Source: Planctomycetota bacterium (GTDB lineage: Bacteria > Planctomycetota > UBA1135 > UBA2386). From it: a DNA stretch of 64,000 nucleotides. Both the position numbers and the translations under genes were made by a program. How positions within the stretch are numbered: the stretch's first letter is position 1; every line of letters begins with the position of its first letter. Where the stretch lies: contig OZ245006.1 of assembly GCA_965223545.1 (NCBI GenBank), forward strand, positions 4,672,001 through 4,736,000, read 5' to 3'. Positions 417 to 50,784 of the stretch are shown here, one piece after another. The notes beneath the pieces were generated by a model. The model was not told where the DNA came from, searched no databases, and saw only the letters and a program-made list of their open reading frames with translations.

Positions 417-2300
417 GTGAATCCCCGCACTCTCTATCGGTCCATCGTTCCCCTCGCCGTCGCCGCGCTGGCGCATGGCCAAGAGGTCTTGGTCAGCAAC
501 GACATCGCGGTGTCGACGACCTGGACCGCGAACAACATCTACAACCTGCAAGACCAGATCTACGTCCTGCCCGGCGCCACGCTCACCATCGAGGCCGGCA
601 CCGTCATCGCGAGCACGACCAACTTGGGCGGCAGCCTGGCGGTCGCGCGCGGCGCTCAGATCTTCGTCAAGGGCACCGAGCAGCGCCCCGTCATCATGAC
701 TTCGAAGGCCGACGTCGCCACTTGGACCGGGGGCGACCCGAAGACCGGCACTTGGCGTGAGGTCGCCAACGAGTGGGGCAACCTGACCATCATGGGGTCG
801 GCATACATCTCGGAGAACGCCACGATCGGCAATACGCCCAAGCCGAAGGCCAGCAACACCGCGGCGATGGAAGGTCTCATCGCCCAGCGCCCCGGCGATC
901 CCAACGTCCTCTACGGCGGTGGCAACGACGATGACGACAGCGGCTCGATCAGCTACCTGTCGCTGCGCTACGGCGGCAAGGTCATCGCCTTGACGAACGA
1001 ACTCAACGGGCTGTCGCTGGGTGGCATCGGTCGCGAGACCGACATCCACCACGTCGAAATCATGAACAACGTCGACGACGGCATCGAAGTCTGGGGCGGC
1101 ACCGTCAATCTCAAGTACTTCAGCATATGGAATGTCGGCGATGACAGCTTCGACGTCGACCAGGGGTGGCGGGGCAAGGCCCAGTTCGGCCTGATCGTGC
1201 AGGGGCACAGCCTCGATGCGAGCCAGGGATCCGGTGTCGGTGACAACGCGTTCGAGACCGACGGCGCCGAGGACTCCGACTGGCAGCCGGTAACCACGGC
1301 ATCGATCTACAACTGCACCGTGATCGGTCAGCCGGCCGATGGTGACGGCTTGACCGCTTGGCGTGACAACGCCCGCGTGCAGTACCGCAACTGCATCTTC
1401 ATGGATGGCGGCGAGCAGGTCGTCCGCTTCGACGACAAGGACGGCGACGGCGCCAATGGCTACGGCTTCAACGGAACCCTGTCGTGGCCCGCGACTTGGA
1501 CCACGAGTCATACCGTGACCTCGCCGGTCAACGCGCCGGCCAACCCGGCGGCGTTCTATCGCGCGCAGACCTCCGGCATGCTGGCAGAGATCGTCGACAG
1601 CGTGTTCTACAACAACGCCCACTCCTCCGCCTACACCGAGGCGAACGCGCGCGGCGTGTTCGCGGCGGCGAACAACAACGTCCGAGAGCCCGCCAGTTCG
1701 CCGATCGTGTCGATCACGCGCGGCGCGCCGGTGCTCAAGGGCGGCAAAGTCCTGTTCCCGGTCACCTTCCTCGATCCGCGCCCTGCCGGGGACGCGCTCA
1801 GCAGCGCTGCGTTTGCCAGCGCCGACGGCTTCCTGTCGTCCGCCGCCTACCGCGGCGCGTTTGCTTCAGGCAACAACTGGCTTTGTGGATGGACGGCTTC
1901 GGAGGCCTTCGGCTTCACTCCGGCCGAGCGTTGGTGCGACCTCGGCCTCGCCACCGCCGGCGTCAATGGCGATCCGGTCCTGGCTGGTTCCGGACCGCTG
2001 ACCGCTGGCAGCACCGCGACCCTGGACCTGAGCAACGCGGCCCCGCTGACGCCGACCGCCCTCGCCATCGGCCCGGCACGCCTGAACCTGCCGATCGTCG
2101 GCGCCATCCTCGTGCCCAACGTCGCCCTCGGCGGCACGATTCCGCTGGGCACGACTGCGAGCGGCGACTTCGGCTTGAACTTCCGTTGGCCGGCGGGGGT
2201 CCCGTCCGGCGCGGCCTTCTACTTCCAGTACTTCATTCTCGACGCCGCCGGTCCGGCCGGCTTCTCGGCGTCGAACGCGGTGTCCGCCACCGCGCCTTGA
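417..2300 (+). CDS. Secreted TBDR-associated protein (parallel beta-helix-like, Asp/Gly/Asn-rich) with shared C-terminal domain
   Basis: Signal peptide (AHG-Q). Motifs ATLTIEAGTVI, YGGGNDDDDSGSISYLSLRYGG, NELNGLSLGGIG, DDGIEVWGG, GDDSFDVDQGW. C-terminal domain from ~1932. Confidence 0.8.
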   Translation: MNPRTLYRSIVPLAVAALAHGQEVLVSNDIAVSTTWTANNIYNLQDQIYVLPGATLTIEAGTVIASTTNLGGSLAVARGAQIFVKGTEQRPVIMTSKADVATWTGGDPKTGTWREVANEWGNLTIMGSAYISENATIGNTPKPKASNTAAMEGLIAQRPGDPNVLYGGGNDDDDSGSISYLSLRYGGKVIALTNELNGLSLGGIGRETDIHHVEIMNNVDDGIEVWGGTVNLKYFSIWNVGDDSFDVDQGWRGKAQFGLIVQGHSLDASQGSGVGDNAFETDGAEDSDWQPVTTASIYNCTVIGQPADGDGLTAWRDNARVQYRNCIFMDGGEQVVRFDDKDGDGANGYGFNGTLSWPATWTTSHTVTSPVNAPANPAAFYRAQTSGMLAEIVDSVFYNNAHSSAYTEANARGVFAAANNNVREPASSPIVSITRGAPVLKGGKVLFPVTFLDPRPAGDALSSAAFASADGFLSSAAYRGAFASGNNWLCGWTASEAFGFTPAERWCDLGLATAGVNGDPVLAGSGPLTAGSTATLDLSNAAPLTPTALAIGPARLNLPIVGAILVPNVALGGTIPLGTTASGDFGLNFRWPAGVPSGAAFYFQYFILDAAGPAGFSASNAVSATAP

Positions 2301-2318
2301 TTGCTGACTCCGACCTCC

Positions 2319-2342
2319 ATCCGTCCGGCCAAGAGGACGGAT
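2319..2342 (+). other. Intra-operon stem-loop after first gene
   Basis: ATCCGTCC-GGCCAAGA-GGACGGAT, perfect 8-bp stem, no U tract. Confidence 0.4.
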
Positions 2343-2432: not shown

Positions 2433-3593
2433 GTGCACTCTTCCCTCCGTTTCGCGCAACTCGCTGCGCTGTTGCTGTTCGTCTCGTGTGGTGGCCCCGA
2501 ATCTCCCAGTCCGGCCGCAGGCGCGCGCACGCTCCTGTCGCTGGCCGAACGCGCCGCGACTCTGGTGCCGGTAGATCCCCACGTAAAGACACGGGCACGG
2601 TTACAGGAGCAAGTCGCGCTCCTCTACCTGGATGCGGGCGACGTCGAGAGCGCGCGGGCGATCGCAGCCGATGTGCAGGGCTGGCGGCGCGGGTCGGTGC
2701 TCGCCGCTATCGCGGCGTCGGCGATCGAAGCTGGGCGGACCGAGGAGGCGCGCGCGGCCCTGGCCGCCGCCGACGCCACCGTCAGTACCTTGGCGCGAAA
2801 CCCGGTCGAGCAGCAATGGCGCATCGACCGGATCCGGCAGCACATCGACGCCGTCCGCTCCTTGCTCCGACCGGGAGAGGTGGCGGGCGAGGATGCGATC
2901 GCGCTCGGCATCGCGACCTCGACGCCGGAACAGGCGCGCGCTCTGCTCAGGGCTCACGAATCCGTACCCGTGACCGGCGACTTTGACGCGACCCGGCGGG
3001 TCATGGTGCTGTTTGGCCGTCTGCACGAGGATTGCACGGATCCGCAGCTGCGCGAAGAGCTGCGCCAACGCCTGCTGCAAGGTGCTGGCGACCTGCCCGG
3101 TGAGGCTAGGATCATGCTGTTCGTCGAAGTCGCCGCCGCGGCGCTGGACCACGGCGATCGCGAGGCGCCGGCGGAGCTACTGGAGCAGGCAGCACGGGTC
3201 CTCGATGGCGGCGATTGGCTGCCTGACCACCGCATTCGCCTCGCGGCGCGGATCGAAGCCACGCGCTATCGCCTCGCTGATGCGGCGCAGGTCCACAACG
3301 CGATCCGTGAGCTGTACGCCGACTATCGAGCGGCCCGCGAGCGGATTATCGACATCGACCGTGCCGACGCCCTGCGCGCGATCGGCAAGGCGCTCGCCAC
3401 CGCCGGTGACCGTGCCAGGGCGACCGAGGTCTTCGACGAAGCGCTGACCGCGGGCTTTGCCAATCCTAACGCCCGACCTCGGGCCGAGGACTTGGTCGCC
3501 ACCTGTGCGGCCTTGCTGAACAGCGCCATCACAACGCCCGTGCTGATCGACCGGGTGCGGCAACAAGTCGACGCGCTGCGCGACCCATGGTGA
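2433..3593 (+). CDS. Helical-repeat (TPR-like) lipoprotein
   Basis: GTG start gives MHSSLRFAQLAALLLFVSCGG (lipobox-like Cys). Ala/Leu-rich helical repeats. Overlaps the TBDR start. Confidence 0.65.
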   Translation: MHSSLRFAQLAALLLFVSCGGPESPSPAAGARTLLSLAERAATLVPVDPHVKTRARLQEQVALLYLDAGDVESARAIAADVQGWRRGSVLAAIAASAIEAGRTEEARAALAAADATVSTLARNPVEQQWRIDRIRQHIDAVRSLLRPGEVAGEDAIALGIATSTPEQARALLRAHESVPVTGDFDATRRVMVLFGRLHEDCTDPQLREELRQRLLQGAGDLPGEARIMLFVEVAAAALDHGDREAPAELLEQAARVLDGGDWLPDHRIRLAARIEATRYRLADAAQVHNAIRELYADYRAARERIIDIDRADALRAIGKALATAGDRARATEVFDEALTAGFANPNARPRAEDLVATCAALLNSAITTPVLIDRVRQQVDALRDPW

Positions 3594-6562
3594 TACCCGG
3601 CGCCAACCACGAGCGGAGTGGTCCGTTGTTGATCGCGTTATTCACCCTGTCGTCGTTCGCGGCCGCCCAGCAGGCCTCGCCGGGTCGGCTGCGGGGCACG
3701 GTGCGCGACGCCGAGCTGCAGTTGCCGTTGGGCAATGCACGGGTCGCGATCGTCGAACTCGGGCGCTCCACCGTCACCGACGAGGCCGGCAACTACTCGC
3801 TCGACCGGGTTTCGGCGGGAACGTACACGGTCGTCATCTCCAAGAGCGGATATGTCCGGGCGGTGCGCGCTGGCGTTGTGATCAACAGCGCGGCGATGAC
3901 CGAGATCGATGTCGCGCTGCCGCCGGTGGTGGTCGAGGTGCCGGAGTTCGTGGTCGAGGACTTGCTGGATCTTGATGCCGGCAGCGAGGTCGCCTTGCTG
4001 GATCTGCGCTTCGAGAGCCCGTCGGTAATGGACTCGATCGGTGCCGACATGATGGGACGCGCCGGTGTGTCGGATGCGGCCAGCGCGCTGCGGATCGTCG
4101 CCGGCGCGACCGTGCGCGACGGCAAGTCGGCGGTGATCCGCGGGCTGCCCGATCGCTACGTCAGCTCGCAGGTCAACGCCATGCGTTTGCCCAGTGCCGA
4201 CGAGGACAAGCGTGCGGTGGAGCTCGATCAATTCCCCGGTGCCGTGGTCGAGAGCATCCAGGTCTCCAAGACCTTCACTCCCGACCAGCAAGGCGACGCG
4301 TCGGGGGGCGCCGTCGACGTGCGGTTGGTGGGTGTGCCCAGCGTCCCGTTCTTTTTCGATCTCAAGCTGCAGACGACCTACGACTCACAGGCCACAGGCC
4401 GCAGCCGGTTCTTGACCTACGAAGGTGGGGGCGTCCACGCCTGGGGTCGCGGGGTGGAAGACCGCGCACCGCAGCTGGAGAGCCTCGGCGAGAACTGGAC
4501 CGGCGCGGTCGGCGTGCAGCGGGCCGAAGCCCCGGAGGAGTACAAGCTGTCTACCTCTCTCGGTGGCTCTCTCGACGTCGGCGACTACGTCGTCGGCGGG
4601 TTCGCCAGCTTCGTCTACGAGCGCGACAGCGCGTTCGACGATTCGGGCATCGACGATTCGATGTGGGTCGAGCGGCCCGGAGCTCCGATGACGCCCAAGG
4701 CGTTCCAGGGCAGCGTCGGCGAGGGCGACTTCAAGACCGGGTTGTTCGACGTCACGCGCGGCTCGCAATCGGTGCAGTGGGGTGGGGTCGCCGGAGTCGG
4801 CATCGCCACCGAGAGTCAGTCGATCGATCTGACCTACTTCTATACGCGAACCGCCGAGGACGCGGCGGTGCTGGCCGAGGACACTCGCGGCAAGCAGTTC
4901 TTCTTTCCCGGCCACGACCCGAACGACCCCAACACCCCCGGGCACAGCGAGCCCGATGCGGCACCCTACCTTCGGCTCGAGACCCTGCAGTACACCGAGC
5001 GCATCGCCGAGACGCTGCAGCTGCGCGGCAGCCATGAGATGGCGCTGGACCTCGGGGTCTTCGACTCGCCGACGCTGCGATGGTCGGTCGCCGACAGCGC
5101 CGCGACGGCCCGCCAACCCGACAAGCGGCAATTTGGCTCGCAGTTCCGTCCGGCGCGCAGCTTCGGGCCGCTGACGATTCCGGCGACCCAGCTTCCGTTC
5201 AAGCCGAGCGCCAACTTCACGCTCGGCAACCTGCAGCGCATCTACAAGACGATCGAGGAGGAGAGCCAGCAGTACTCCGGAGACCTCGACCTGCCCTTCG
5301 GCGACTGGGCGGATGGCGAGGGTGCCCTTCGTTTCGGCGTGTATCGCGACAAGGTGCGCCGCACGTTCGACCAAGACACGTTCAGCAATTTCGGCGACAA
5401 CAGCAGCTTCAACGCGCCGTTCGAGCAACTGTGGAGCGCGGCCTTCCCGTTCGAGAGTCACCCGATCACCGCCTCCGAGAGCGATGTCGATTACGTCGGT
5501 GATCAGCGCATCGATGCCTGGTATGCGATGACTGAGCTCCCGGTGCTGGATGACCTGACCATCGTGGGCGGCGTACGCTTCGAGTCGACCGAGATCGGCA
5601 TCGTCAACGACGCCGAATCCGAGGCGACCTGGTTTCCGGCAGGGTCGCTGGCGCAGACTCAGCTCAATCCGGGCGACGCCGACGTCGACTTTCGTCAAGC
5701 GGATGCTCTGCCCGCGATCACGTTGATCTATCGCCCGCTGGATCGACTGACCCTCCGCGCGGCCTACAGCGAGACAGTGGCGCGCCCGACGTTCAAGGAG
5801 CTCACCCCGATCTTGCAGCAGGAGTTCCTCGGTGGACCGATCTTCATCGGCAACCCGGAGCTCGGCATGAGCGCTCTGCAGAACTTCGACCTGCGCATCG
5901 ACTTCGAGCCGTACGCCGGCGGCCTCTGGTCAGCTTCGTGGTTTCGCAAGAACATCGACAAACCGATCGAGTACGTGCAGAAGATCGCGTCCTTCGATTA
6001 CACGACGGCGGAGAACTACCCGAGGGGAGTGCTGAAGGGGGTCGAGCTCGAGGCGCGTCAAGCCCTCGGCCACTACTGGGAGGGTCTCGAAGGGACCAGT
6101 ATCGGCGCCAACGCCACGTTCATCGATGCGACCGTGACGCTGCCAGCCGACGAGGCCGCCGCCTTCAATCTGCCCAACATCCAGGCACCGATGACCGAGC
6201 GCGACATGACCAACGCGCCCGAGCACTTGTACAACCTGTTCTTGACCCTCGATCTGGAGCGTACCGGAACGCGTCTCGGCCTGTTCTACACGGTGCAGGG
6301 CGACACCTTGGTTGCCGGCGCGGGCCAGTCCACAGGCAACTTCGTACCCAGTGTGTACGCGACCGGGTTCGACACCCTCAACTTCACTCTTGCGCAGCAG
6401 CTGAGCCCGTACCTCTCACTGCAGTTCCGCGCCAAGAACCTCACGAATCCAACGATCCGAGAGGTCTATCGCTCACCGTACATCGGCGGCGACGTCACCA
6501 ACACGGCCCGACGCGCCGGTACCGAGTTCTCCATCTCCATCGGTGGTGAAGTCTCGTTCTGA
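3587..6562 (+). CDS. TonB-dependent receptor with N-terminal carboxypeptidase-regulatory-like domain
   Basis: Plug motifs IRGLPDRY and VESIQVSKTFTPD, barrel motif RAAYSETVARPTFKEL, AKNLTN, C-terminal Phe. Confidence 0.92.
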   Translation: MVIPGANHERSGPLLIALFTLSSFAAAQQASPGRLRGTVRDAELQLPLGNARVAIVELGRSTVTDEAGNYSLDRVSAGTYTVVISKSGYVRAVRAGVVINSAAMTEIDVALPPVVVEVPEFVVEDLLDLDAGSEVALLDLRFESPSVMDSIGADMMGRAGVSDAASALRIVAGATVRDGKSAVIRGLPDRYVSSQVNAMRLPSADEDKRAVELDQFPGAVVESIQVSKTFTPDQQGDASGGAVDVRLVGVPSVPFFFDLKLQTTYDSQATGRSRFLTYEGGGVHAWGRGVEDRAPQLESLGENWTGAVGVQRAEAPEEYKLSTSLGGSLDVGDYVVGGFASFVYERDSAFDDSGIDDSMWVERPGAPMTPKAFQGSVGEGDFKTGLFDVTRGSQSVQWGGVAGVGIATESQSIDLTYFYTRTAEDAAVLAEDTRGKQFFFPGHDPNDPNTPGHSEPDAAPYLRLETLQYTERIAETLQLRGSHEMALDLGVFDSPTLRWSVADSAATARQPDKRQFGSQFRPARSFGPLTIPATQLPFKPSANFTLGNLQRIYKTIEEESQQYSGDLDLPFGDWADGEGALRFGVYRDKVRRTFDQDTFSNFGDNSSFNAPFEQLWSAAFPFESHPITASESDVDYVGDQRIDAWYAMTELPVLDDLTIVGGVRFESTEIGIVNDAESEATWFPAGSLAQTQLNPGDADVDFRQADALPAITLIYRPLDRLTLRAAYSETVARPTFKELTPILQQEFLGGPIFIGNPELGMSALQNFDLRIDFEPYAGGLWSASWFRKNIDKPIEYVQKIASFDYTTAENYPRGVLKGVELEARQALGHYWEGLEGTSIGANATFIDATVTLPADEAAAFNLPNIQAPMTERDMTNAPEHLYNLFLTLDLERTGTRLGLFYTVQGDTLVAGAGQSTGNFVPSVYATGFDTLNFTLAQQLSPYLSLQFRAKNLTNPTIREVYRSPYIGGDVTNTARRAGTEFSISIGGEVSF

Positions 6563-6590
6563 CCGAGCAAGTGCCATCCAGGTCCGACCC

Positions 6591-7439
6591 ATGAATAGCT
6601 ATACTCCCCGCCGCCACGGCCCCAGGGCATTTCATCACGGGCGCGTTCTCGGCGTCGTCGCCGCACTAGTAACGAGCGCGAGCGCGGTCGCCCAAGCTCC
6701 CGGCGCAGCCAATCCGGCTGCGCGCGTCGACGAGACGCGTTCCGTACTCGAGCAATGGGTGCAGTTGCGCCGCATGATCTCGGCCGAGAAGCGCGACTGG
6801 CGTCTCGGCAAGGAGGTCTTGGAGACCCGAAGCCAAGTCCTGCAACGCGAGATCGACGACGTTCGCGAACGCATCGACGAGGCGTCGGCCAATCTCAGCG
6901 AGGCCGATCGAACCCGCGAGGAGTTACAACGGGTGCAGGAGCGACAGCGTGCGAGCCGAGATGCAATTGTCGCCGCGTTGACCGAGGCCGAAGGCGCGCT
7001 GCGCGCCTTGCTGTCCCGCCTGCCGCCACCGCTCCGCGACCGGCTGTCGGCACCGATCGCAGTGGTCGCTTCCGATGCGGGGACTGCGGCGGGCGGCGCC
7101 GCGAAGTCGGTGGCTCAGCGGATGGCCGCGGTGGTCGCCATTCTGACCGAGTGCGAGCGGTTCAACCGCGAGATCACGCTCGCGCACGAGCTGCGCGAGC
7201 TGGACGACGGCCGCAGTGCCGAGGTGCGCGTGCTGTACTTGGGACTCGGCCAGGCGTTCTACGTCACCGCCAGCGATGACGCCGCCGGCGTTGGAGCCCC
7301 CACCGAAAACGGATGGGCCTGGGTGGCGGCGAACGATGCCGCGGGGGTCATTAGAAAGGCGATCGACGTCTACGAGCAGACCTCGCCAGCGGCGTTCGTC
7401 CACCTACCCGTTTCGGTTCGAACGGGGGCAACCCGATGA
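6591..7439 (+). CDS. DUF3450-family coiled-coil protein (TtpB-like TonB accessory)
   Basis: Signal peptide, long coiled coil, EVRVLYLGLGQAFYV and FVHLPV ending. Sits between TBDR and the large ExbB. Confidence 0.75.
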   Translation: MNSYTPRRHGPRAFHHGRVLGVVAALVTSASAVAQAPGAANPAARVDETRSVLEQWVQLRRMISAEKRDWRLGKEVLETRSQVLQREIDDVRERIDEASANLSEADRTREELQRVQERQRASRDAIVAALTEAEGALRALLSRLPPPLRDRLSAPIAVVASDAGTAAGGAAKSVAQRMAAVVAILTECERFNREITLAHELRELDDGRSAEVRVLYLGLGQAFYVTASDDAAGVGAPTENGWAWVAANDAAGVIRKAIDVYEQTSPAAFVHLPVSVRTGATR

Positions 7440-9016
7440 CATCGTTTCTCAGGCCGGGCCCGGTCCGGATAGTCGCCGCGCTGGCCGCCGGCTGTCTGCT
7501 GCCCGCCCAGGAAGCCGAGCAGATCACCCCGGCTGACAAGGCTCTAACGTCGGTCGCGACCGACGTGCGTGGCAAGATGCAAGAGGCGGTCGCCGAGCTG
7601 GAGCAACTCCGCGCGCTGATCGCGGAGCAGCGCCTGCCGTTGGACCGCGGCCTGCGGGAGCGGGAGGACGAGTTGTTGCGCTTGCGCACGCAATATCAAG
7701 AGCGCGTGCGCACTCTCGACAGCACGGCTTTGTCGCTCAACACGCTGCGCGACGAGAACAACCGCGGCAAGGCGGAGGCGGAGTACGTCGAGGGCCTTCT
7801 CTTGGCCTACACACGGTCGTTCGAAGCCGGCTTGCACATCGCCGAGTACGCTCGGTACGCGGATGCGTTGAGGATCGTCCGAGACCTGGATCAGGCGGCG
7901 CCCGGCGACGACGAGGCCCCGTGGTCCTCGTTGTTCGAGGTCCTCGACACCGGCGTGCGCCGCCTTGAAGGATCCATCGGCGGGGCTCGGTTCTCCGGTC
8001 GTGCACTCGACGGAGATGGCATTGCCCAGCAAGGCGAGTTCGTCCTGGTCGGTCCTGTCGCGACGTTCGTCGCCGCCAACCGTCGTGCCGCCGGCTCGGT
8101 CGAGCAGCGGCTCGGTTCGTCCGAGCCGACCGCGGTACCGTTTCCGGACGACGAGGACGGCGCGGCGGCCCGCGCGTGGGTGGAGAGCGGCACCGGCCCG
8201 ATGCCGGTCGACGCCACGCTCGGCAACGCCCAGATCGTGGCGGCGACCCGAGAAACCCTATGGCAGCACGTGCAGAAGGGTGGACCGGTAATGGTACCGA
8301 TTATCGTGATGGCGGGCTGTGCGTTGCTCGTCGCCATCTACAAGTGGCTGGCCTTGTCTCTCCTTCGGCGGCCTGCCAAAGCGAGAATGGAGGCGCTGCT
8401 CCGGGCCGTCGACAAGGGCAATCGAGAGGCGGCTGCCGCCGAGGTCGCCAAGATTCGAGGACCGATCGGTGCGATGCTCGCCGACGGAGTCGCCCATCTG
8501 AGCGAACCTCGCCAGCTGGTCGAGGAGGTCATGTACGAGTCGCTGCTCCGCGCTCGACTCCAGCTGCAGCGGCTGCTGCCGTTCATCGCGATCTGCGCGG
8601 CGGCGGCACCCCTGCTGGGCTTGCTCGGCACCGTGACCGGCATCATCAACACCTTCAAGCAGATCACGGTGTTCGGTTCGGGCGACGTCAGGATGCTGTC
8701 GGGCGGAATTTCGGAGGCGCTGATCACTACCAAGTTCGGTCTGATAGTCGCGATCCCCTCGCTCCTCCTGCACGCGTACCTTTCCCGCAAGGCGCGCCGC
8801 GTGACCGACGAGATGGAATCGGCGGGAATGGCGCTGCTGAACCGGTTGCCGTCCACCACCGACCGGCCGCCTGCTGGCGCGGTGGATGTGCCGGCGACGG
8901 CGTTGCCGGCGTCGTCGGAGATCAAGCGCCAGGTCGGCGAGATTCTGGTCGAGATGCTCGGCCCCCTGCATCCGCGCGGGAACGCCGACAAGCGCCAACC
9001 GTCACGGGTCGGTTGA
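7436..9016 (+). CDS. exbB: Large MotA/TolQ/ExbB-family protein (TtpC-like) with periplasmic coiled coil
   Basis: KGGPVM, APLLGLLGTVTGII, GGISEALITT, plus a long N-terminal extension. Confidence 0.88.
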   Translation: MTSFLRPGPVRIVAALAAGCLLPAQEAEQITPADKALTSVATDVRGKMQEAVAELEQLRALIAEQRLPLDRGLREREDELLRLRTQYQERVRTLDSTALSLNTLRDENNRGKAEAEYVEGLLLAYTRSFEAGLHIAEYARYADALRIVRDLDQAAPGDDEAPWSSLFEVLDTGVRRLEGSIGGARFSGRALDGDGIAQQGEFVLVGPVATFVAANRRAAGSVEQRLGSSEPTAVPFPDDEDGAAARAWVESGTGPMPVDATLGNAQIVAATRETLWQHVQKGGPVMVPIIVMAGCALLVAIYKWLALSLLRRPAKARMEALLRAVDKGNREAAAAEVAKIRGPIGAMLADGVAHLSEPRQLVEEVMYESLLRARLQLQRLLPFIAICAAAAPLLGLLGTVTGIINTFKQITVFGSGDVRMLSGGISEALITTKFGLIVAIPSLLLHAYLSRKARRVTDEMESAGMALLNRLPSTTDRPPAGAVDVPATALPASSEIKRQVGEILVEMLGPLHPRGNADKRQPSRVG

Positions 9017-9023
9017 ACCGTCG

Positions 9024-9776
9024 ATGATCGCCACTCTTGTCGAAGTCAACGCGACCGTCCGGGGCCAGCCGGCAGCGCTGCCATCGGCGGACGATCCGCT
9101 TTCTTGGTCGGGGTTCGTGCAGCAGGCGTGGCTCACGTGGCAGGACGGCGGCTGGGCGATGGTCGCCATTGCCGCCATCGCGCTGATCCTGTTCAGCGTC
9201 GGGTTCCGCTTGCTACTCGAGCTGCGACGACAGGGCACCCTGGTCCTCGAGGAGGACACCTGGCGGACATGGATCGACGATCCGGAGACCCGGCACGGCC
9301 GGCTCGGGGCGCTGTTGGATGCGGCGCTCCGCGACTGCAACCTCGAGCGAGTCGGCACCGTGTTCTCCGAGTATCAGAGCTTGGAGGCGGGCAGTACGCG
9401 CCGCGACTTGCGCATCATGCGGGTCTGCGTCGCCGCAGCACCGCTCGTCGGGCTGCTCGGCACCGTCACCGGCATGCTCTCCACGTTCTCGGCGCTATCC
9501 GCTGGCGGTGCCAGCGAGCAGACCATGACGATGATCGCGGGCGGAATCTCCGAAGCCCTGATCACCACCGAGACCGGCCTGGTTGTGGCTCTGCCCGGGT
9601 TGTTCTTCCTGCACCACTTGCAGCGCAGCGATGCCCGTTGGCGCGCCGCGCTTGCCCATCTCGAGAGTGCCTGTGCACAAGCGGTCCATTGCCAGCTGCT
9701 CCGCCGTGGCCGTGAGCGAAGCCGCGAACGAGCGATGGCGTTGATCGCCGACCGCCTGTTGCAAGCGGTCTCTTGA
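9024..9776 (+). CDS. exbB: MotA/TolQ/ExbB proton channel protein
   Basis: APLVGLLGTVTGML, GGISEALITTETGLVVALP. Confidence 0.88.
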   Translation: MIATLVEVNATVRGQPAALPSADDPLSWSGFVQQAWLTWQDGGWAMVAIAAIALILFSVGFRLLLELRRQGTLVLEEDTWRTWIDDPETRHGRLGALLDAALRDCNLERVGTVFSEYQSLEAGSTRRDLRIMRVCVAAAPLVGLLGTVTGMLSTFSALSAGGASEQTMTMIAGGISEALITTETGLVVALPGLFFLHHLQRSDARWRAALAHLESACAQAVHCQLLRRGRERSRERAMALIADRLLQAVS

Positions 9777-9830
9777 GCGTCACCAGCCGTACCTACTTCT
9801 GAGTTTCCTGACCCCAGATTGAGCTATCCA

Positions 9831-10244
9831 ATGCGCCGTTTCCGCAACAGCTCAGTCGATGACGAAGCCGAGGCCGGCATCGACATGTCGCCGCTCATCG
9901 ACTGTGTCTTCATCTTGCTGATCTTCTTCATCGTGACGACCGTGTTCGTCGAGGAGACGGGCGTCGAGGTCGACCGCCCTCAAGCTGCCTCCGCGGCGCA
10001 GCTCGAGAGCAATAGCATCCTGATTGCGCTCACCGAGACCGGTGAGATCGTGTATGGGGAGCGCGAGATCGGTGTCGGCGGAATCCAGCCGCTGGTCAAG
10101 CGACTGCTGGCAAAGGAAGACCTGCCGGTCATCATCCAGGCCGACGGTGACTCCATGTCCGGCTTGCTGGTGAGGATTGTCGATGAGGCCAAGCTGGCCG
10201 GGGCGAAGAAGGTCAGTGTCGCGACCCGAGCCGGACAGGGATGA
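9831..10244 (+). CDS. exbD: Biopolymer transporter ExbD
   Basis: IDMSPLIDCVFILLIFFIVTTVF; VIIQAD. Confidence 0.93.
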   Translation: MRRFRNSSVDDEAEAGIDMSPLIDCVFILLIFFIVTTVFVEETGVEVDRPQAASAAQLESNSILIALTETGEIVYGEREIGVGGIQPLVKRLLAKEDLPVIIQADGDSMSGLLVRIVDEAKLAGAKKVSVATRAGQG

Positions 10245-10909
10245 GCCGCGCTTCGACGAGGCGCCGCCCTTGGCGGCAGCGGCTGGTCGTCGCCGCAGCC
10301 GCGATCACCAGCACCGTCGGTGTCTTTGCCGTGCTGCCTCTGCTGCAAACGATGCGCGCCGCACCCAAGCCGGACTACGTGCTGCGAGACCTCGACATCA
10401 CCAGCCTGCCGCCGCCACCGCCACCGCCGCCACCTCCGGATCCCGAACCGGAGCCGGAGCCGGAGCCGCCACCGGACTTGATCGAGCCGGTCACGGCCGA
10501 TGCTCTGGGGCCGCTGCAGCTCGATCTCGGTGGAGCTGGCGGCAGCGGATGGTTGGGCAGCGGCTTGCTCGCCGGCATGGCCCGCCTGGGTCAGTCCGGT
10601 GGTGCCGCGGAAGCCGGGCTGGGGCTCGACGGTCTCGAGCAAGCGCCCAGGCCGATTGCGCCGCAGGCCTCTCCTGCGCTGACCGGGGCGCTGCGGCGCA
10701 AGCTGCCCGCCGAGGTCTTGGTGCGCATCACGGTGGGGCCCGATGGCAGCGTCGAGGGAGTCAAGGTGCTCGGCTCCAGCGACCCCGACTTCGAGGCGTC
10801 CGTCACTGCCGCCGTCGAGCGGTGGAAGTACGAGCCGGGAATCCGAAACGGCAAACCCGACCGCTTTCGCTTGCGACAAAACGTACACCTGAGAAGGCCC
10901 AGACAATGA
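10241..10909 (+). CDS. tonB: Energy transducer TonB
   Basis: N-terminal TM segment, poly-Pro/EP linker, C-terminal AVERWKYEPGIRNGKP. Confidence 0.88.
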   Translation: MSRASTRRRPWRQRLVVAAAAITSTVGVFAVLPLLQTMRAAPKPDYVLRDLDITSLPPPPPPPPPPDPEPEPEPEPPPDLIEPVTADALGPLQLDLGGAGGSGWLGSGLLAGMARLGQSGGAAEAGLGLDGLEQAPRPIAPQASPALTGALRRKLPAEVLVRITVGPDGSVEGVKVLGSSDPDFEASVTAAVERWKYEPGIRNGKPDRFRLRQNVHLRRPRQ

Positions 10910-17769: not shown

Positions 17770-19046
<1,277 letters not shown>

Positions 19047-19050
<4 letters not shown>

Positions 19051-20315: not shown

Positions 20316-21070
20316 GTGCGCACCTCCACGCCCCATTCGGCGAGGGCCTTCTTGACGTCGCCGACGGTCAGATCGCCGTCGTGGAAGATCGACGCCGCCA
20401 GCACCGCGTCGGCGCCGGCCTGCAGCGCCTCGAGCAAGTGCCTCGGTTCGTTGGCGCCGCCCGAGGCAATGATCGGCACGTTGACGGCGCCGGCCATGAG
20501 GCGCAGCAGCTCGAGGTCGTAGCCGGATCGCGTGCCGTCGCGGTCCCAACTGGTCAGCAGGATCTCGCCGGCGCCGCGCGCAACCGCGTCCCGCGCCCAC
20601 GCCGTCGCCTCGGTGCCGGTCTGCGTCTTGCCGGACAGAATGATCACTTCGTAACGGTTGCGCTCTGCAACGTACGCCGCGTCCAGCGCAAGCACCGTGC
20701 ACTGCCGGCCGAACCGCTCGGCCATCTCCGCCAGCAGCTCGGGTCGCTGGACCGCCGCGGTATTCACGCTGACCTTGTCCGCGCCGGCGTCGAGCAGGAC
20801 GGCGGCGTCGTCGGCACTGCGCACTCCACCGCCGACGGTCAGCGGAATCGACAGCTGCGCGCGCAGCGCGCGCACGGTCTCGATCGCGGTCTTGCGCCCC
20901 TCGGGAGAGGCGGACACGTCGAGCATCACCAGCTCGTCGGCGCCCTGCGCCTCGTAGGCGGCCGCCAGCTCGGTGGGCGAGCCGGCGTCGCGCAGTCCCT
21001 GGAACTGCACGCCTTTGACGACGCGCCCGTCGCGCACGTCGAGACACGGGATGATGCGCGCGGTCAGCAT
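20312..21070 (-). CDS. hisF: Imidazole glycerol phosphate synthase cyclase subunit
   Basis: [42 protein letters not shown]. Confidence 0.97.
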
Positions 21071-43166: not shown

Positions 43167-43198
43167 CCGCTGCCGTCGCCGCAACAGTTCGCTCCGCA

Positions 43199-43837: not shown

Positions 43838-43852
43838 CGTTGCGCTCGGCGT

Positions 43853-45325
43853 TCAGAGGCGGACGAAGTGCGGCCACGCCTCGCCGACCGTCGTCGCGTC
43901 GCCGGCAAACCAGCGCAACATCACGGTGGCGCCGTACCACGCCGGCACCGGCGCGAACTGCAGCGTGCCGGCCTGCGGATCACCGCACAGCACGTTCGCG
44001 GGATTGCGTACCACGGCATCGGCCTGCACGAACGGCACCACGCTGGCGAGCGGTGTCACGAGTAGCACGGCGGCCCCGGGGTTGGCGACGTTGCCCGGCC
44101 AGCCGATCAGCGGCGAGACGAAGCGCAGCAGGCCCGTCGAGTGGTCGAACTCCCGGAATGCCGCCGCGCTCAGCACCGGCTTGCGAAACAACCCGGTCGT
44201 CGCCTGGGGCGTGCCGTGCACGTAGAACGCGTTGTTTGGGCGCCCGCCGGCGAGGGTCGACCGCCGTGGAACGCTCGGATCCATCGAGCAGATCGCGTCG
44301 ATGTCGTCGACGCCGATCAGGCCGATCGTCGACGACAGCGGCGTACCGGTCGAGGTGGTGTACGGCACCGGGATCGCGGTGCGGCAGCCGGGCGCCCAGG
44401 AGAAGAACATCAGTGGGTCGCGGGGCACGATGCGAATGTCGGTCGAGAACAGCATCTGCTGCCCGTCGATGTCGATTCCCAGGCCGTCGATGTCTTCCTT
44501 GTCCGACAGGGACAGGTCGGCGTAGCTGCGCCACACGCGTGGACACGTCCAGATGCCTGCGGTCGGCAGCCAGCTCACGCAGAGGATCGTGGCCCCGCTG
44601 GGCAGTGGACCGGTCTGCGACGAGAACCACTGCGCCGGCGCCAGCTTGGCGCTCGCGCTGGTCAGCGAGAAGTAGATGTTGGTCTGCGCCAGCATCATGC
44701 CACCGCCGCGTGGGTCGACCGTCGTGTTGCCGACGCGGTCGTCGAGCGCGTGGTAGGGCACGAACATATCGAAGCCCGCCACGTCACCGCGCAACCCCAC
44801 CTCGGCCGCGTCGTACGCTCGCTCGGTTTGCCCCACCAACGCCGCTGGAATCGCCAGCTCGCTGCCCGGCAGCACGTAGGAGTAGATGTCGGCCTCGACC
44901 GAGGAGCCCGCCGCGCGCTCGGCCGCGATGCGCGAACCGCGCCTTCCCCCGGTGCCGCGGGTCAGGGACAACGTCACCGCCGCCCACCGGCCGGGCGGCA
45001 CCATCGCGCGGCCGGCGCAGTCGCCGATGACCCAATCCTCGCCGATCGAGATCGCGTCGACCTCGAGCGGAGTCCGCGTGCACTTGCGCAGCAGCTGCTG
45101 CAGATCGAAGTCGGGTCGCAGCGGTGGCAGCCCGCCGGGCCAGGCGCCGGGCGCCTTGCCGTCGAGTCCGGCACGCTTGTGGTACATCTGGTCGGGGGCC
45201 AGCGCACCGCTACCGTGCACCATGAACGCGCCCGGCACGCCGGCGAACGGTCCGGCTGACTCCGGGCACTGTGCGGCGACCGCGCCGCTGGCGACGAGGA
45301 GGGATACGAAGGGAGCTGCGCGCAC
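43853..45325 (-). CDS. Secreted hypothetical protein with D-[IV]-D-[AG] repeats and possible divergent C-terminal domain
   Basis: Signal peptide VAA-QC; EVDAIS, DIDGLG, DIDAIC repeats. Start uncertain. Confidence 0.65.
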   Translation of the reverse strand: MRAAPFVSLLVASGAVAAQCPESAGPFAGVPGAFMVHGSGALAPDQMYHKRAGLDGKAPGAWPGGLPPLRPDFDLQQLLRKCTRTPLEVDAISIGEDWVIGDCAGRAMVPPGRWAAVTLSLTRGTGGRRGSRIAAERAAGSSVEADIYSYVLPGSELAIPAALVGQTERAYDAAEVGLRGDVAGFDMFVPYHALDDRVGNTTVDPRGGGMMLAQTNIYFSLTSASAKLAPAQWFSSQTGPLPSGATILCVSWLPTAGIWTCPRVWRSYADLSLSDKEDIDGLGIDIDGQQMLFSTDIRIVPRDPLMFFSWAPGCRTAIPVPYTTSTGTPLSSTIGLIGVDDIDAICSMDPSVPRRSTLAGGRPNNAFYVHGTPQATTGLFRKPVLSAAAFREFDHSTGLLRFVSPLIGWPGNVANPGAAVLLVTPLASVVPFVQADAVVRNPANVLCGDPQAGTLQFAPVPAWYGATVMLRWFAGDATTVGEAWPHFVRL

Positions 45326-45451: not shown

Positions 45452-47068
45452 CTACTGCAGCCCCTTCACCACGGCGTTGGAGGCGGACAGCCCCTGTGGC
45501 CCGCCGGCATCGAGCACCCAGGATTGGATCGAGAGCTCGGTGGCCACCGGGACGAACGTCGGCATTCGCGCCACCAACCCCGCGCTTCCCAGCGCATCAG
45601 TGATCAGCGGGACGAGCGCGGTCCAGTGCGGCACCAGGGTGCCACCGGCGAACGGTAGGTTGACGCGGGCGTTGCCGAGCACGTGCACGCCCGGCGCCGT
45701 GGCGAGCGCGCCGGTCAGCGCGAGGGACAGCGGTGCCGACGGCTGCAGGTAGCCGCGGACCTCGAGGGCCGGCGTCCCGGCGCTGCCGGCGAGGCCGGCC
45801 GGCACCGTCATCCATTTCTCCCGCACCAGCCGCATCAGTCGGCCCGCGCCGCCGTTGACGACGATCTCGCCCAGCGAGTCGAGCCCCAGCCCGAGCGCGC
45901 GGGTGCCGAAGCAGGGCGCCTCGTAGATCCAGCCCAACCGACCGTCGGGCTCGTAGCGGATCACCGTCGTGCCCAGGCCGCGGGGCGCGGTGGGCGAGCA
46001 GCCGGGAGTCCCCGACAAGCCGCTGGCGTAGACGCCGCCGTCCGGCCCGACCGCGATCGCGGTGCCGAACTCGTCGTTGAAGTCGAAGCCGTCGTGGGTC
46101 GTGCCCCACAACAGATTGCCGGCCGGATCGAACTTCGCGACCAACCAGTCCTGGTAGCCGTACCGCCCGGTACCCCAGCCGATGGCGACGACGTTGCCGG
46201 CGGCGTCCATCGCCAAGCGCTGCAGATTGCCGAATGCGCTGTGCGGCGTGCGGTGCACCGCCGCCCACTGCTTGATTCCGGCCGCGTCCCAGTGCACCAA
46301 CGTCCCGCCCGCTCGCGAGTCCAGGCCACACGCGAACACCGAGCCATCGGCGGCGAGCAGCACGTCGTGGCCACCGCGAACGGGGCTGTGGACGTCGCCG
46401 AACACCTCGCGACCGTTCTCGTCATAGACCACCACCGCCATCGTGACGTTGGTGCTGCCACTGACAGCGACCCTGCCGGACGGGCTGACCGCCATCGCTT
46501 GCGGCGTGTCCTGATTGAGGCCGAAGTCCCGCTGGTTGCGCCACACCTCGTTGCCGTCGGGGTCGTACTTGATCGTCAGGAAGTCGTCGCGGCGCCCGGT
46601 GAGATCGAACACGCGGCCGAAGACGTAGACGTTGTCGGCGGCGTCCACCTCGACGCGGTATCCCTCGTTCGACGCCGGCGCGACCACGCTCCACAGCTCG
46701 GTTCCGTTGGCGCTGAACTTCACCGTCATCATGCCGCCGGGCACCGTCGTGCCGCCGTTGCGGTGGCCAGTGACGATAATGCTTCCGCGAGAGTCGACCG
46801 TCATCCAGCGGGAGTGTTCGTTCACCAGCGGGCTGCCGGAGCTCTGCTCCCAGATGAGGTTGCCGCGAGGGTCGAACTTGCGCGCGTAGAAGTCCTTCAG
46901 CGGCCCACTCCCGTCGACGCAGATGTTGTTCTGGAAGTCGAAGCGGAAGCGTGTGGCCCAGGATTGGATGCGCCAATCTTCCGTCACCGGCTGGGTCGCT
47001 GGTCGGACGGAGAGTGCGAGGGCAAACAGCGCGGCGAGCGCGCACCGGGCGGCGGTAGGAGGCGTCAT
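45452..47068 (-). CDS. Secreted SBBP-like beta-propeller protein with shared C-terminal domain
   Basis: Repeated K[FY]DxxGNxxW and VDxxxN blades; C-terminal ...QSWVLDAGGPQGLSASNAV. Confidence 0.8.
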   Translation of the reverse strand: MTPPTAARCALAALFALALSVRPATQPVTEDWRIQSWATRFRFDFQNNICVDGSGPLKDFYARKFDPRGNLIWEQSSGSPLVNEHSRWMTVDSRGSIIVTGHRNGGTTVPGGMMTVKFSANGTELWSVVAPASNEGYRVEVDAADNVYVFGRVFDLTGRRDDFLTIKYDPDGNEVWRNQRDFGLNQDTPQAMAVSPSGRVAVSGSTNVTMAVVVYDENGREVFGDVHSPVRGGHDVLLAADGSVFACGLDSRAGGTLVHWDAAGIKQWAAVHRTPHSAFGNLQRLAMDAAGNVVAIGWGTGRYGYQDWLVAKFDPAGNLLWGTTHDGFDFNDEFGTAIAVGPDGGVYASGLSGTPGCSPTAPRGLGTTVIRYEPDGRLGWIYEAPCFGTRALGLGLDSLGEIVVNGGAGRLMRLVREKWMTVPAGLAGSAGTPALEVRGYLQPSAPLSLALTGALATAPGVHVLGNARVNLPFAGGTLVPHWTALVPLITDALGSAGLVARMPTFVPVATELSIQSWVLDAGGPQGLSASNAVVKGLQ

Positions 47069-47304: not shown

Positions 47305-48231
47305 GTGATCTCCGTGCGCCGAACCGCATTCGTTGCTGCCGTCTCGCTGCCCTTGGCAGCGGTTCCCGCTGTCGCGCAGTCGTGCACGAAGGTCATGGCC
47401 GAAGCCAACATGGGGCAGCCGCACCGGGCGACCCAGTTCACGCCGACGACCGTGGCGTTCCTGGTGCCGGGAGACCCGGCGGCGAAGACGATCTGCGCCA
47501 TCGAGCTCTACTGCTACACCCGCAACGCGGCCCCGGTGCAGCTGCCGGTCTGGATCTACGACCGCGCGCCCAGCGGTGCGCCGGGCAATCCCCTGGCCAG
47601 CGGCACGATGCTAGTGGACACCGCGGCCGCCGTCTATCGCGCTTCGATCAGGGCGTCATTGCCAGCCGGCGCCGACTTCTTCATCGCCTTCGACAACGCC
47701 GCCGGCAACCTGGCCCCGCCGGTGTCACGGACCGGCGTGGTCGGCACGCACTACCACTCGGGGCCCAACTGGGCGGGACCGTACGGCAGTGGAGCCTGGA
47801 TGTACCGTGTGTACGACGACAGCGGTGTGCAAGCCGCGACGTTCACCACGGTCGGTTCCGGCTGCGCCGGTTCGCTCGGCGTGCCGCGCATCGGCAACGT
47901 CGGCCAGCCCGTCACCGGATCGATCTTTCAGGTGACGTTGGCGAACGCGCCCGCGACCGGCCCGGTGGCACACGTGATCGGTACCGTCGCGACCGCGCTC
48001 GATCTCGGCCCGTTGGGTGCGCCGGGCTGTACCGCCGAGCAGCTGCCGATCGTCGCCCTGCCGCGGAGCACGACGCCGACTGGCGCCGCCGCGGTGGCCT
48101 ACCGCGTGCCTGCGGACCCCGCGCTGATCGGCGCCGTGCTGCGCATGCAGTGGGTCGTGGTCGACCCGCCCGCCAATCCGCTGGGAGTCGTGGTCAGCAA
48201 GGGCGGGGTCGCGCAGGTCGGCGACTTCTGA
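47305..48231 (+). CDS. Secreted hypothetical protein with shared C-terminal domain
   Basis: Signal peptide AVA-Q; C-terminal GSGCAGSLGVP...QWVVVDPPANPLGVVVS. Confidence 0.75.
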   Translation: MISVRRTAFVAAVSLPLAAVPAVAQSCTKVMAEANMGQPHRATQFTPTTVAFLVPGDPAAKTICAIELYCYTRNAAPVQLPVWIYDRAPSGAPGNPLASGTMLVDTAAAVYRASIRASLPAGADFFIAFDNAAGNLAPPVSRTGVVGTHYHSGPNWAGPYGSGAWMYRVYDDSGVQAATFTTVGSGCAGSLGVPRIGNVGQPVTGSIFQVTLANAPATGPVAHVIGTVATALDLGPLGAPGCTAEQLPIVALPRSTTPTGAAAVAYRVPADPALIGAVLRMQWVVVDPPANPLGVVVSKGGVAQVGDF

Positions 48232-48246
48232 CCGAGTGGGACGAGC

Positions 48247-50784
48247 TCAACGAAAGCCGAGCTCCAGCCCGTTGGTGTAGCCGATGCCCGAGGCGCGCGC
48301 GCCGTCGACGATGAAGCACTGCAAGAACACCTGTGCGCCACTGGCGGCAGGCGGCACCGGCCACGACAGGGAGGCCTTGCCCGCGCCCGCTCCGGCGCCC
48401 GCCAGTGCCAGGGGAACGGCGACCAGCGGGGGCGCCACCAGCAGCTGAGTGCCCGGCAACGGGGTGCCAGGCAGCGCTGCGCGCGCGGTGCCGAACACGA
48501 GCGCGGCGGGCGCGCCGCCGAGTGCGCCCGTCACCCGCAGCTCGGTCACCTCGCCGACCCGGAACGGGCCGCTGGCTCCCAATGCCGGCACCGCCCCGCC
48601 GGTGCCCTGGGTCGCCGTCCCATATTGCTGGCGGAAGCCGCCGTCGAGCGTCGTTCCCCGCACCATGCGGTCGCCGGCCCACGCATCCTGGTCACCATCG
48701 CCATCGGTGTCGAAGACGAGCTGGAACGGAATGGCTTGCAAGAACGGCGCGTGCCAGCCGCCGCCCACCTTGCCGCGGATCACCCAGGTCGTGTCCGGCG
48801 CGAAGTTCTCCTCACCGGCGAGGATGTCGGGAGCTCCGTCCTGGTCGACGTCGGTGCACGCCAAGCGCAAGAAGCGCAGGATGCGGGTGGGGATCGTGTG
48901 GGTGCCGAAGGTTCGGTTTCCCAGGTTCTCGTAGACGATGACCGCCCCCGTCGTGGCTTGGCAGACGTCGAGGTCGCCGTCGCCGTCGGCATCGGCGATC
49001 AGGTCGCGACCCAACGTCCCGATCGCGGTCGGGCTCGGATCCCAGATGCCCGCGCCGCTGCCCCAGTAGAGCTGGTGGTCCAGGGTCAGCACGTCGATCC
49101 AGCCGTCGCCGTCGACGTCGGCAGCGGCGGACGGCCGATCGGAGAACGCGGTGGCCGGACCCTGGCTGAAGAAGCCACTGCCGTCGTTGATGCCGGCGAA
49201 CGCCGTCGCCTGATCCGGCACTAGGTCGAGATCGCCGTCACCATCCAGATCCACCGTCAGCACCTGGCCGGGCAAGCCGCGGCTGGGTGGTGCGGTCAAG
49301 AGGCTCACGCCGGGGGCGGCCGCCGGCCCGCCGTCGACGAGCAGGCCGCCGCCCTCGTTGCGAAGCAGCACCAGCTGGAAGAAGAGCCCGCCATCTTGCT
49401 GAGGCGCGATCTGGTCGTCGTCGCCATCGCCGTCGAAGTCACCGGCCCACGCGCTCGACTCGAGGCTGGGGATCGGCGGTCGGGTGGGTTGAAGGACGCG
49501 CATCCAGCCGGCCCCATCGTTGATCAGATACTGCACTCGGCTGCCCAGGGGCACCCGCACGTCCAGGTCGCCGTCGCCGTCGAAGTCGAGTTCGTTGCCG
49601 CTGAAGGTCTGTGGCGAGCCGCTGAACGGCTGCGGCACCCGCCGGAAGCCGTCCTGGTTGAGCAGCACGCTGCGGCCGGCCAGCAGGTCTGGGTCGCCGT
49701 CGCCATCGAGGTCGGCGAGGCCGGCGAGGCCGGAGCTTCCCAGCGCGGGGATCGACCAGAAAGTGCTGAACTGGCCGGTGCCGTCGTTGAGCGAGACCAG
49801 AAACGGAGTGCGGCGGAGGTTGGCGCCGCTCAGAGGCATGCGAAACGATGGGTTGCAGGCAGCCGCGTCGAGGTCGCCGTCGCCGTCGAGGTCGGCGAGT
49901 TGCTCGCACGCGACGAGATTCTGCACGGGTTCGGCGACGAAGGTCGGCCCGGTGGCGCGCTGCACCGCGCTCCTCGCGGCGCCGTCGGAGACCACGATGT
50001 CCAGATCGGCGTCGCCATCGATGTCCCCGACGGCCGCAAGGTACACGCCGAACGACGCGGAGACCCCGTGGAGCCAAGACGCCGTGGAGCTGAGCGAAGC
50101 ACCATCGAAGTCGTAGATCGTGCACTGGCGCGCATCGGTGACCAACAGCTCGGTCTTGCCGTCGCGATCGAGGTCGACGACGTCGATGTCGAACGCCGCG
50201 CCGGTCGCGCTGGCCGCGATCGGGAACGAGGTGCCGCGGTTGAGGCGGATGCGGAATCCAGTGCCCGACACGGGGTCGTGGCCGGCGACGATGAGATCGT
50301 CGGCGCCATCGCCGTCCAGGTCGGCGGTGATGATCCTGCTCGCGGCCGCCGTGGTCGTCCACGCGGCCATCGGCACGGGTTGGCCGGTCGCGCGCGATTG
50401 GAGCAACATGGTCGTGCCGTCGTCGAAGATCAGTGCTACGTCGGCGCGCCCGTCGCCGTCGAAGTCGCCGGTACCCGATGCGGCGAGGGTATTGACGAAG
50501 GTCATCGACCACGCTGCGTCGAACCACCCCGAGCCGTCGTTGAACCAGGCGGAGACCTTTGACCCGGTGGCCGTCAGCATCCAGCCGACAGCGTCGAGGT
50601 CGCCGTCCGCGTCGAGGTCCGCGGTGTGCAGCGCGCGCTCGGTCTCATCGAAGGCGATCACCGGCGCGTCGAACGGCGGCTCTGGTCGCTGCGCTCCTGC
50701 GAGGTCGGTGCCGAGGAGGACGCCGAGTGCGGCGAGCGGAAGGAGGGTGGGCGGCGGTGGCCCCGGCGTGCGTTCACAGGACAT
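48247..50784 (-). CDS. Secreted FG-GAP/VCBS-repeat protein with shared C-terminal domain
   Basis: Many DxDGDGDxD Ca-binding repeats; C-terminal ...FLQCFIVDG..SGIGYTNGL. Confidence 0.9.
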   Translation of the reverse strand: MSCERTPGPPPPTLLPLAALGVLLGTDLAGAQRPEPPFDAPVIAFDETERALHTADLDADGDLDAVGWMLTATGSKVSAWFNDGSGWFDAAWSMTFVNTLAASGTGDFDGDGRADVALIFDDGTTMLLQSRATGQPVPMAAWTTTAAASRIITADLDGDGADDLIVAGHDPVSGTGFRIRLNRGTSFPIAASATGAAFDIDVVDLDRDGKTELLVTDARQCTIYDFDGASLSSTASWLHGVSASFGVYLAAVGDIDGDADLDIVVSDGAARSAVQRATGPTFVAEPVQNLVACEQLADLDGDGDLDAAACNPSFRMPLSGANLRRTPFLVSLNDGTGQFSTFWSIPALGSSGLAGLADLDGDGDPDLLAGRSVLLNQDGFRRVPQPFSGSPQTFSGNELDFDGDGDLDVRVPLGSRVQYLINDGAGWMRVLQPTRPPIPSLESSAWAGDFDGDGDDDQIAPQQDGGLFFQLVLLRNEGGGLLVDGGPAAAPGVSLLTAPPSRGLPGQVLTVDLDGDGDLDLVPDQATAFAGINDGSGFFSQGPATAFSDRPSAAADVDGDGWIDVLTLDHQLYWGSGAGIWDPSPTAIGTLGRDLIADADGDGDLDVCQATTGAVIVYENLGNRTFGTHTIPTRILRFLRLACTDVDQDGAPDILAGEENFAPDTTWVIRGKVGGGWHAPFLQAIPFQLVFDTDGDGDQDAWAGDRMVRGTTLDGGFRQQYGTATQGTGGAVPALGASGPFRVGEVTELRVTGALGGAPAALVFGTARAALPGTPLPGTQLLVAPPLVAVPLALAGAGAGAGKASLSWPVPPAASGAQVFLQCFIVDGARASGIGYTNGLELGFR

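Follow-up and report, generated by a model that had tools for sequence, protein, structure and literature searches.

How type II secretion systems choose their folded cargo is a long-standing open question. For surface lipoproteins such as PulA, and InvL with GspN, display via type II secretion reportedly involves an accessory factor for the class of cargo. The type A C-terminal domain (CTD) of the T9SS (type IX secretion system) in Bacteroidota (TIGR04183, Por_Secre_tail) is an immunoglobulin (Ig)-like beta-sandwich according to PMC12618676, and PMC13393428 states that GlyGly-CTERM proteins reach the surface via type II secretion. We analysed a window of 64,000 nucleotides (C1:4672001-4736000) from a Planctomycetota genome, hereafter G000 (8.1 Mb, 70% GC, 2 contigs, 91% complete), in which the same module of about 125 amino acids ends five otherwise unrelated proteins. 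From the sequences and their genomic company we suggest, with a probability of roughly one half, that this domain serves as an uncleaved export-and-docking handle, which would send its carriers through type II secretion and hold their passengers at the surface; a candidate partner gene, X700, is new in this analysis. Literature searches, whose scope left out supplements (including that of bioRxiv 10.1101/817700) and subscription journals, brought up no paper appearing to describe the domain.

A first-pass annotation of the window had proposed that unrelated secreted proteins end alike, and this proved correct for five of them: their tails align with one another (pairwise E-values of 3e-19 to 2e-4), whereas none of the passengers match each other below E 0.1. 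The tails of the beta-helix and SBBP proteins are 39% identical (E 3e-19), those of the sulfatase and an unknown protein 36% (E 2e-17), and the FG-GAP tail matches that of the beta-helix protein at E 3e-8. All five carriers have N-termini that look, by eye, like signal peptides, and their domain copies match the family profile at E 6e-26 to 5e-17. Copy 1 (1935-2294, plus strand, E 6e-19), of a cysteine-less subtype, ends a signal-peptide protein (417-2300) first read as a beta-helix, with PF28492 precomputed on its homologs and orthologs that exchange the tail for dockerin-like or short ones. Copy 2 (16937-17344, plus strand, E 4e-24), with two cysteines, lies on a sulfatase (15623-17353, PF00884), and copy 3 (45464-45808, minus strand, E 5e-17), cysteine-less, on an SBBP-like propeller (45452-47068, NF047494 below cut-off) whose gene most likely starts at 47068. 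Copy 4 (47845-48219, plus strand, E 6e-26), with two cysteines, ends the unknown protein (47305-48231), and the cysteine-less copy 5 (48256-48630, minus strand, E 2e-23) the FG-GAP protein (48247-50784, PF13517). The beta-helix and unknown passengers have no match in the Pfam version searched. For a possible sixth carrier (43853-45325, minus strand), the domain profile gives no match, and its tail (about 43856-44230) aligns no better than shuffles with that of a paralog which has the same passenger and a recognisable copy (E 5e-7); at the family level a weak link was seen, one of 13 homologs scoring E 0.0017 and the tail family reaching 50% profile probability over 27 columns (reversed tails 0.1%). 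At most, this protein carries a probable degenerate copy. The window lipoproteins were said to lack the module, and lipobox proteins checked by profile (e.g., 2433-3593, 10906-12333 and 35698-37143) do.

The family is not catalogued. Comparison of 71 copies with Pfam and NCBIfam gave no match, a PDB sequence search none below E 0.2, and 30 Atlas matches of the domain have no Pfam family in common. The model of copy 4 (predicted local distance difference test, pLDDT, 97.6) is an all-beta Ig-like sandwich with an arm at its N-terminus and a hairpin insert and, in line with the earlier reading, the module presents no transmembrane helix, nor a basic cluster in its last residues. Both cysteines are present in 190 of 259 aligned rows, both are absent in 61 and one is absent in 8, and they form the top covarying pair, so that a disulfide is likely, and with it folding outside the cytoplasm. 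A glutamine (95%) ranks as the most conserved residue and covaries with the arm, so that it is probably structural; few aromatic residues are conserved and the domain has no conserved word. We describe it as an uncatalogued domain of about 125 amino acids, predicted to be an Ig-like sandwich with a disulfide-stapled insert. Foldseek with the model returned nothing at E<=0.001, and a wide structure search yielded generic Ig folds (best Z 8.5, root-mean-square deviation, rmsd, 2.3, 83 aligned), among which T9SS CTDs, cohesins and S-layer chains were not prominent, although such an absence excludes nothing. A complex prediction with three copies scored 0.01, which is evidence neither way. The domain has few charged residues (8%) and a mean hydropathy of +0.50, versus 17% and -0.08 in the passengers, and among the highest Foldseek rows are two lipid binders, GM2-activator and NPC2, and neocarzinostatin, a pocket protein, at chance level (E 0.005-0.02, template-modelling score 0.3-0.4). 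Such features would suit direct binding of outer-membrane lipid, glycan or surface layer by the domain, with no dedicated partner and X700 a mere clade marker; against this, the covariation (Y3-L62, G4-Q99, A8-L113, L54-L69) suggests that the arm and the insert cover much of the extra hydrophobic face.

In G000, a first profile built from the five window tails retrieved 149 open reading frames and converged at 349-351, with no reversed-decoy match. When a deeper profile was applied to the roughly 5,760 genes of a home-made simple gene caller, 413 carriers passed E<0.01, once more without a reversed-decoy match; they represent about 7% of the proteins. Each of the 413 carriers has one copy. The stop codon lies within 15 residues of the domain end in 373 of them and after an extension of 16-80 residues in 26, while 14 copies are internal or N-terminal, about eight of these directly behind the signal peptide (by eye); at least nine proteins consist, by eye, of a signal peptide and the domain alone, and the genes beside such standalone copies, once compared, had none in common. 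In a second genome, G011 (2.23 Mb read of about 2.7 Mb), 12 of 33 single copies are non-terminal, at least six directly behind the signal peptide. The location near the C-terminus, as first described, is thus usual without being obligatory. A subgroup of carriers (26 genome-wide; e.g., C1:1765253-1766671) has an extension of 33-45 residues ending in a hydrophobic strand-like motif.

The 373 terminal copies, and the single copy in every carrier, would also be expected of a pure secretion signal in the manner of T9SS type A, read by the channel and then cleaved, with the cargo released or anchored otherwise. Type A CTDs also form an Ig-like sandwich (PMC12618676), the fold predicted for the domain. 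Many Glu/Lys-poor exported proteins counted as non-carriers appear by eye to end in further divergent copies. Several genomes also have, upstream of X700, a gene that is rhomboid-like by its motif, yet the domain offers a rhomboid no transmembrane tail to cut, N-terminal, internal and standalone copies fit terminal cleavage poorly, and the domain replaces lipid anchors, which retain proteins. PorV (PF19572) had no candidate in the 91% of G000 that is available, its control matching in B. thetaiotaomicron; TIGR04183 gave none either, with a silent control, and SprA (TIGR04189) was not found with a control that matched nowhere. Because of the N-terminal, internal and standalone copies and the lack of a PorV match, we conclude that the domain is not a T9SS signal, and a cleaved signal of this type is quite unlikely.

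A further possibility is an ordinary accessory module (carbohydrate-binding, adhesive or a folding aid) that expanded in one lineage with no sorting role. The generic Ig-like fold and the free position of the domain would agree with it, as would a row for CBM56, a carbohydrate-binding module (CBM), at Z 7.2 (rmsd 3.4, 90 aligned), although numerous Ig folds of other kinds tie with it. Typical CBM or Ig modules occur as repeats, whereas tandem copies are absent in 413/413 carriers of G000 and 33/33 of G011; moreover, the passengers sort into 167 families, the domain is almost excluded from lipoproteins, its spread over genomes is all-or-none, and few aromatic residues are conserved. Neither Pfam nor PDB sequences (below E 0.2) gave a match to a described CBM family. 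We consider an accessory module very improbable.

The destination of the carriers was approached through their sequences. By home-made heuristic rules, used in place of a trained predictor, a strict signal peptide was found in 299 of 401 carriers versus 733 of 4,975 other proteins, and a strict lipobox in 1 of 351 carriers versus 66 of 1,991 others. The median Glu+Lys content is 3.4% in passengers and 7.4% in other signal-peptide proteins; among sulfatases alone (4 with and 25 without the domain), this gap is not significant (P 0.08), while that for Glu+Lys+Arg has P 0.01. A bias to low charge and small residues is a mark of extracellular proteins, and the carriers very probably end up beyond the outer membrane. 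It might be argued that the domain keeps them within the periplasm, on peptidoglycan or the inner membrane, since signal peptides and a disulfide prove passage to the periplasm only and X700, with 13% Glu+Lys, itself looks periplasmic. The passenger composition, sharply unlike that of other signal-peptide proteins, speaks against this, as do passengers with the motifs of FG-GAP, Kelch-like and ELWxxDGT-like propellers, which elsewhere are typically carried on the surface, and a beta-helix carrier gene that travels with an outer-membrane receptor gene; periplasmic retention is therefore most unlikely. A codon-bias search of G000 for an abundant scaffold protein was uninformative.

Exchanges of the domain for other anchors or tails were found. 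Three G000 carriers have 420-550 residues in common with paralogs that start with a lipobox instead: the carrier at C1:8009385 matches lipoproteins at 4277164, 5777335 and 7167276 (E 1e-14 to 5e-23), and those at 4934992 and 4938098 match lipoproteins at 354937, 357581 and 2160834 (E 3e-63 to 6e-108). For the beta-helix protein we collected 80 gene loci, of which 75 have a complete tail of at least 25 residues (five were dropped as incomplete or very short): the domain ends 50 of these, a Saltatorellus-type form alone 9, a dockerin-like tail 7 and another tail 9. The Saltatorellus-type form is homologous to the domain (profile match 95%, E 4e-8), and three of the dockerin-like-tailed proteins match NF041540 below its cut-off. 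The domain thus trades places with lipid anchors in paralogs and with dockerin-like tails in orthologs. A TonB-dependent receptor adjoins the beta-helix gene in 68 of 80 loci, and in 52 of the 53 with full flanks. In three loci (L050, L064 and L081, past about 11430-11490), the orthologs end in a different unnamed tail of 87 residues, which by profile has no relation to the domain.

Across databases, 34,907 clusters at 50% identity match the domain, and the best 150 relatives have one copy in 148 cases and a terminal one in 146. In the Atlas the closest clusters come from Planctomycetota, as do the homologs that have names. Our spread survey covered Planctomycetota, plus one genome of unstated phylum in which the Saltatorellus form had no match, and scored 18 candidates per genome, so that its matches are not copy numbers: of 230 Planctomycetota genomes, 42 gave at least eight matches, three gave one and 185 none. 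Three Phycisphaerae genomes gave 0, 0 and 1 matches, and in the cultured strain Saltatorellus ferox all 150 candidates scored, out of 386, match the related form, i.e. it has at least 150 copies. With the signal peptides, the single copies, the anchor swaps and the lack of a known family, this all-or-none spread upholds the earlier idea of a lineage-specific export or anchoring domain, though not as a strictly C-terminal signal of T9SS style.

That idea had been taken to imply a dedicated translocon, which is not what we found: three secretin-locus candidates failed, and the candidate partner sits instead by ordinary type II secretion genes. G000 has six secretins and an intact gspD-J cluster, with gspD, E, F, G and pseudopilins at C1:690314-698522; gspK lies at C1:1170056-1171612. 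Twin large secretins with ExbB/ExbD/ExbD and tetratricopeptide repeat (TPR) genes were discarded, as 123 of 151 genomes have them; a 966-aa TPR protein encoded at their locus was found in 6/151 with a single sequence as query, which is uninformative. A pair of small secretins was discarded as well, with 4/151 genomes at E 1e-40 and a weaker homolog in G011. At L113:6990-17916, on to C1:7090901 of G000, two large secretins with helical N-termini stand around ExbD, ExbD and ExbB/MotA, along with two TPR genes; this may be a secretin machine driven by protons. Adjoining it is a MamK-like actin with an end similar to saltatorellin of S. ferox. A second pilin-like cluster (C1:1836502-1851773) encodes, as judged by motifs, a 1,751-aa GspK-like and a 904-aa TPR-like protein, together with PilM/PilO-like genes. 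A pattern search of G000 for PEP-like tails found none.

The candidate partner came from a comparison of G000 and G011, in which 763 of 2,744 exported or membrane non-carriers matched, 162 of them with an export signal in both; 81 of these were scanned, those judged by eye as likely known enzymes or parts were left out, and 16 had no Pfam match. X700 (C1:699861-701957, minus strand, outside the window) encodes 698 amino acids with a signal peptide and is situated right beyond the gsp cluster in G000 as well as in G011. It is full-length at E<=2.4e-100 in 28/28 domain-positive genomes (8 held out) and in 0/123 others, and a larger sample has it in 41/42 versus 0/188; the 79 genomes new to that sample gave 13/14 versus 0/65, one of them, G201, duplicating a genome seen earlier. 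S. ferox has it full-length, two Phycisphaerae do not, and one genome picked up via X700 then turned out to contain 65 matches to the domain. In 14 genomes (11 of 12 fetched stretches plus G000, G011 and G063), a homolog of gspJ is located no more than 4.5 kb downstream, and the linkage is kept where serS was lost (G033 and G063). The protein has no match in Pfam or NCBIfam and no real one in the PDB, and looking it up by sequence or by words brought nothing; its model combines TPR-like helices (20-235) with beta domains (250-698), and structure searches brought generic TPR-like helices only (Z up to 13), the beta part being barely covered. Two Pfam-less control genes are phylum-wide (92/151 and 141/151 genomes).

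Several points weigh against X700 as the partner, or against a docking handle. The X700 profile was built from 20 orthologs, all of domain-positive genomes, and three of the 16 Pfam-less candidates were profiled. The phylum-wide co-occurrence covered X700 and not the type II genes. One positive genome, G172 (890 contigs), has no X700 at E 1e-40; gspJ is not linked to the gene in G053, nor within the short flanks available for G018 and for one copy in G055; and the gene is convergent with the gsp genes, in most cases across serS, so that they are not co-transcribed. Its beta part recurs in shorter proteins of domain-positive and domain-negative genomes alike, and longer distant homologs (E 2e-60 to 5e-44) occur in four genomes without a domain match. 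Domain-positive genomes fill the top 22 and 20 ranks even for the two control genes; since these genomes are kin, X700 may be a clade marker only and, as kin genomes are not independent, we give no statistical test. Finally, among the best 150 relatives in the database, two contain the domain twice, and the standalone copies have nothing to anchor. Kinship, which inflates the co-occurrence, would together with the swaps for lipoboxes favor direct binding without a partner, but the structural rows are at chance level, the passage of 400 folded proteins across the outer membrane and the X700-gsp linkage kept after serS loss are then left unaccounted for, and we regard direct binding as unlikely. 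That X700 is the direct partner of the domain is possible, and we put it forward tentatively.

The export-and-docking handle is supported by the family itself, one copy per protein, the free choice of terminus, the lipobox and dockerin-like swaps, the lack of PorV, the intact gspD-J and the co-occurrence and linkage of X700. In this mechanism, a carrier would be exported by Sec, as predicted, and then fold in the periplasm, where its domain would be recognised, likely with the help of X700 beside the type II genes; the carrier would pass through the type II channel, and the domain would stay attached, likely replacing a lipid anchor in keeping the passenger on the surface of the cell. A type II route is somewhat more probable than not, and so is retention on the surface. 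The fullest version, in which a Planctomycetota branch including S. ferox uses a position-independent tag on up to 7% of its proteins, with X700 as periplasmic adaptor, a conventional type II channel and surface docking, is more doubtful. If true, this would amount to a type II secretion signal that is modular and transplantable; to our knowledge, no such signal has been defined for this system. Being very large, unnamed in the catalogues searched and present on about 7% of proteins, the family would define the surface proteome in a Planctomycetota branch that is abundant and barely cultured, and one portable domain with one candidate adaptor gene makes the system testable. If X700 were only a clade marker, the domain would still merit a family model and would be a new type of anchor.

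Other features of the window are context. On the plus strand at 2433-12333 lie a lipoprotein, a TonB-dependent receptor (3587-6562), ExbB/TolQ (7436-9016), ExbD- and TonB-like genes and a TPR lipoprotein. A redoxin-like gene (29968-30900, plus strand) is interrupted by TGA, in frame, where the CxxC motif has its first cysteine (W-U-G-P-C), and is a candidate selenoprotein; similar splits, with stop codon identity unchecked, occur at C1:6225459-6226607 and C1:5050935-5052047. A lower-GC stretch (55904-58827, minus strand) has two overlapping frames, which look, by their motifs, like one frameshift-split NACHT-type NTPase with a nuclease-like N-terminus, and a run of genes at 17770-24810 (minus strand) presumably is, again by motifs, a histidine biosynthesis operon. 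Elsewhere in G000, three giant signal-peptide proteins of 1,250-3,440 amino acids without the domain (C1:5016380-5026717, 6502522-6509526 and 6975183-6979163) have in common another C-terminal region of at least 110 amino acids, found on no other called gene, and near-identical 301-aa secreted proteins with unusual codon use lie at C1:4668999-4669907, just upstream of the window, and 6739496-6741922.

Compared with known systems, the domain resembles the T9SS type A CTD in being one, predicted, Ig-like sandwich per protein, mostly terminal, on diverse Sec-exported cargo. It differs in its length of about 125 amino acids and its disulfide-stapled insert, in N-terminal, internal and standalone copies that break a strict C-terminal position (14/413 in G000, 12/33 in G011) and in the lack of a PorV match; TIGR04183/Por_Secre_tail matched 0/6 window proteins and 0/71 copies in Pfam and NCBIfam. 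Like GlyGly-CTERM with rhombosortase and PEP-CTERM with exosortase, it marks cargo of unrelated kinds and has a candidate partner gene of matching distribution but, unlike these short transmembrane motifs that are cut, it is folded and of soluble type, with no transmembrane helix or basic tail. The proposed surface display by type II secretion, helped by a factor that serves one class of cargo, recalls PulA and InvL with GspN, except that hardly any carrier is a lipoprotein, the domain takes the place of the lipobox of paralogs, and X700 belongs to no known family. The domain and the GC-type dockerin tail (NF041540) of Phycisphaerae occupy one slot on a common passenger, with dockerin-like tails on 7 of 75 orthologs, whereas the domain's sequence and predicted beta-sandwich are unrelated, the lineages differ, dockerin models (PF00404/NF041540) matched 0/71 copies and the domain consensus has no EF-hand-like motif. 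The domain would work like a T9SS CTD or a dockerin and is a member of neither family.

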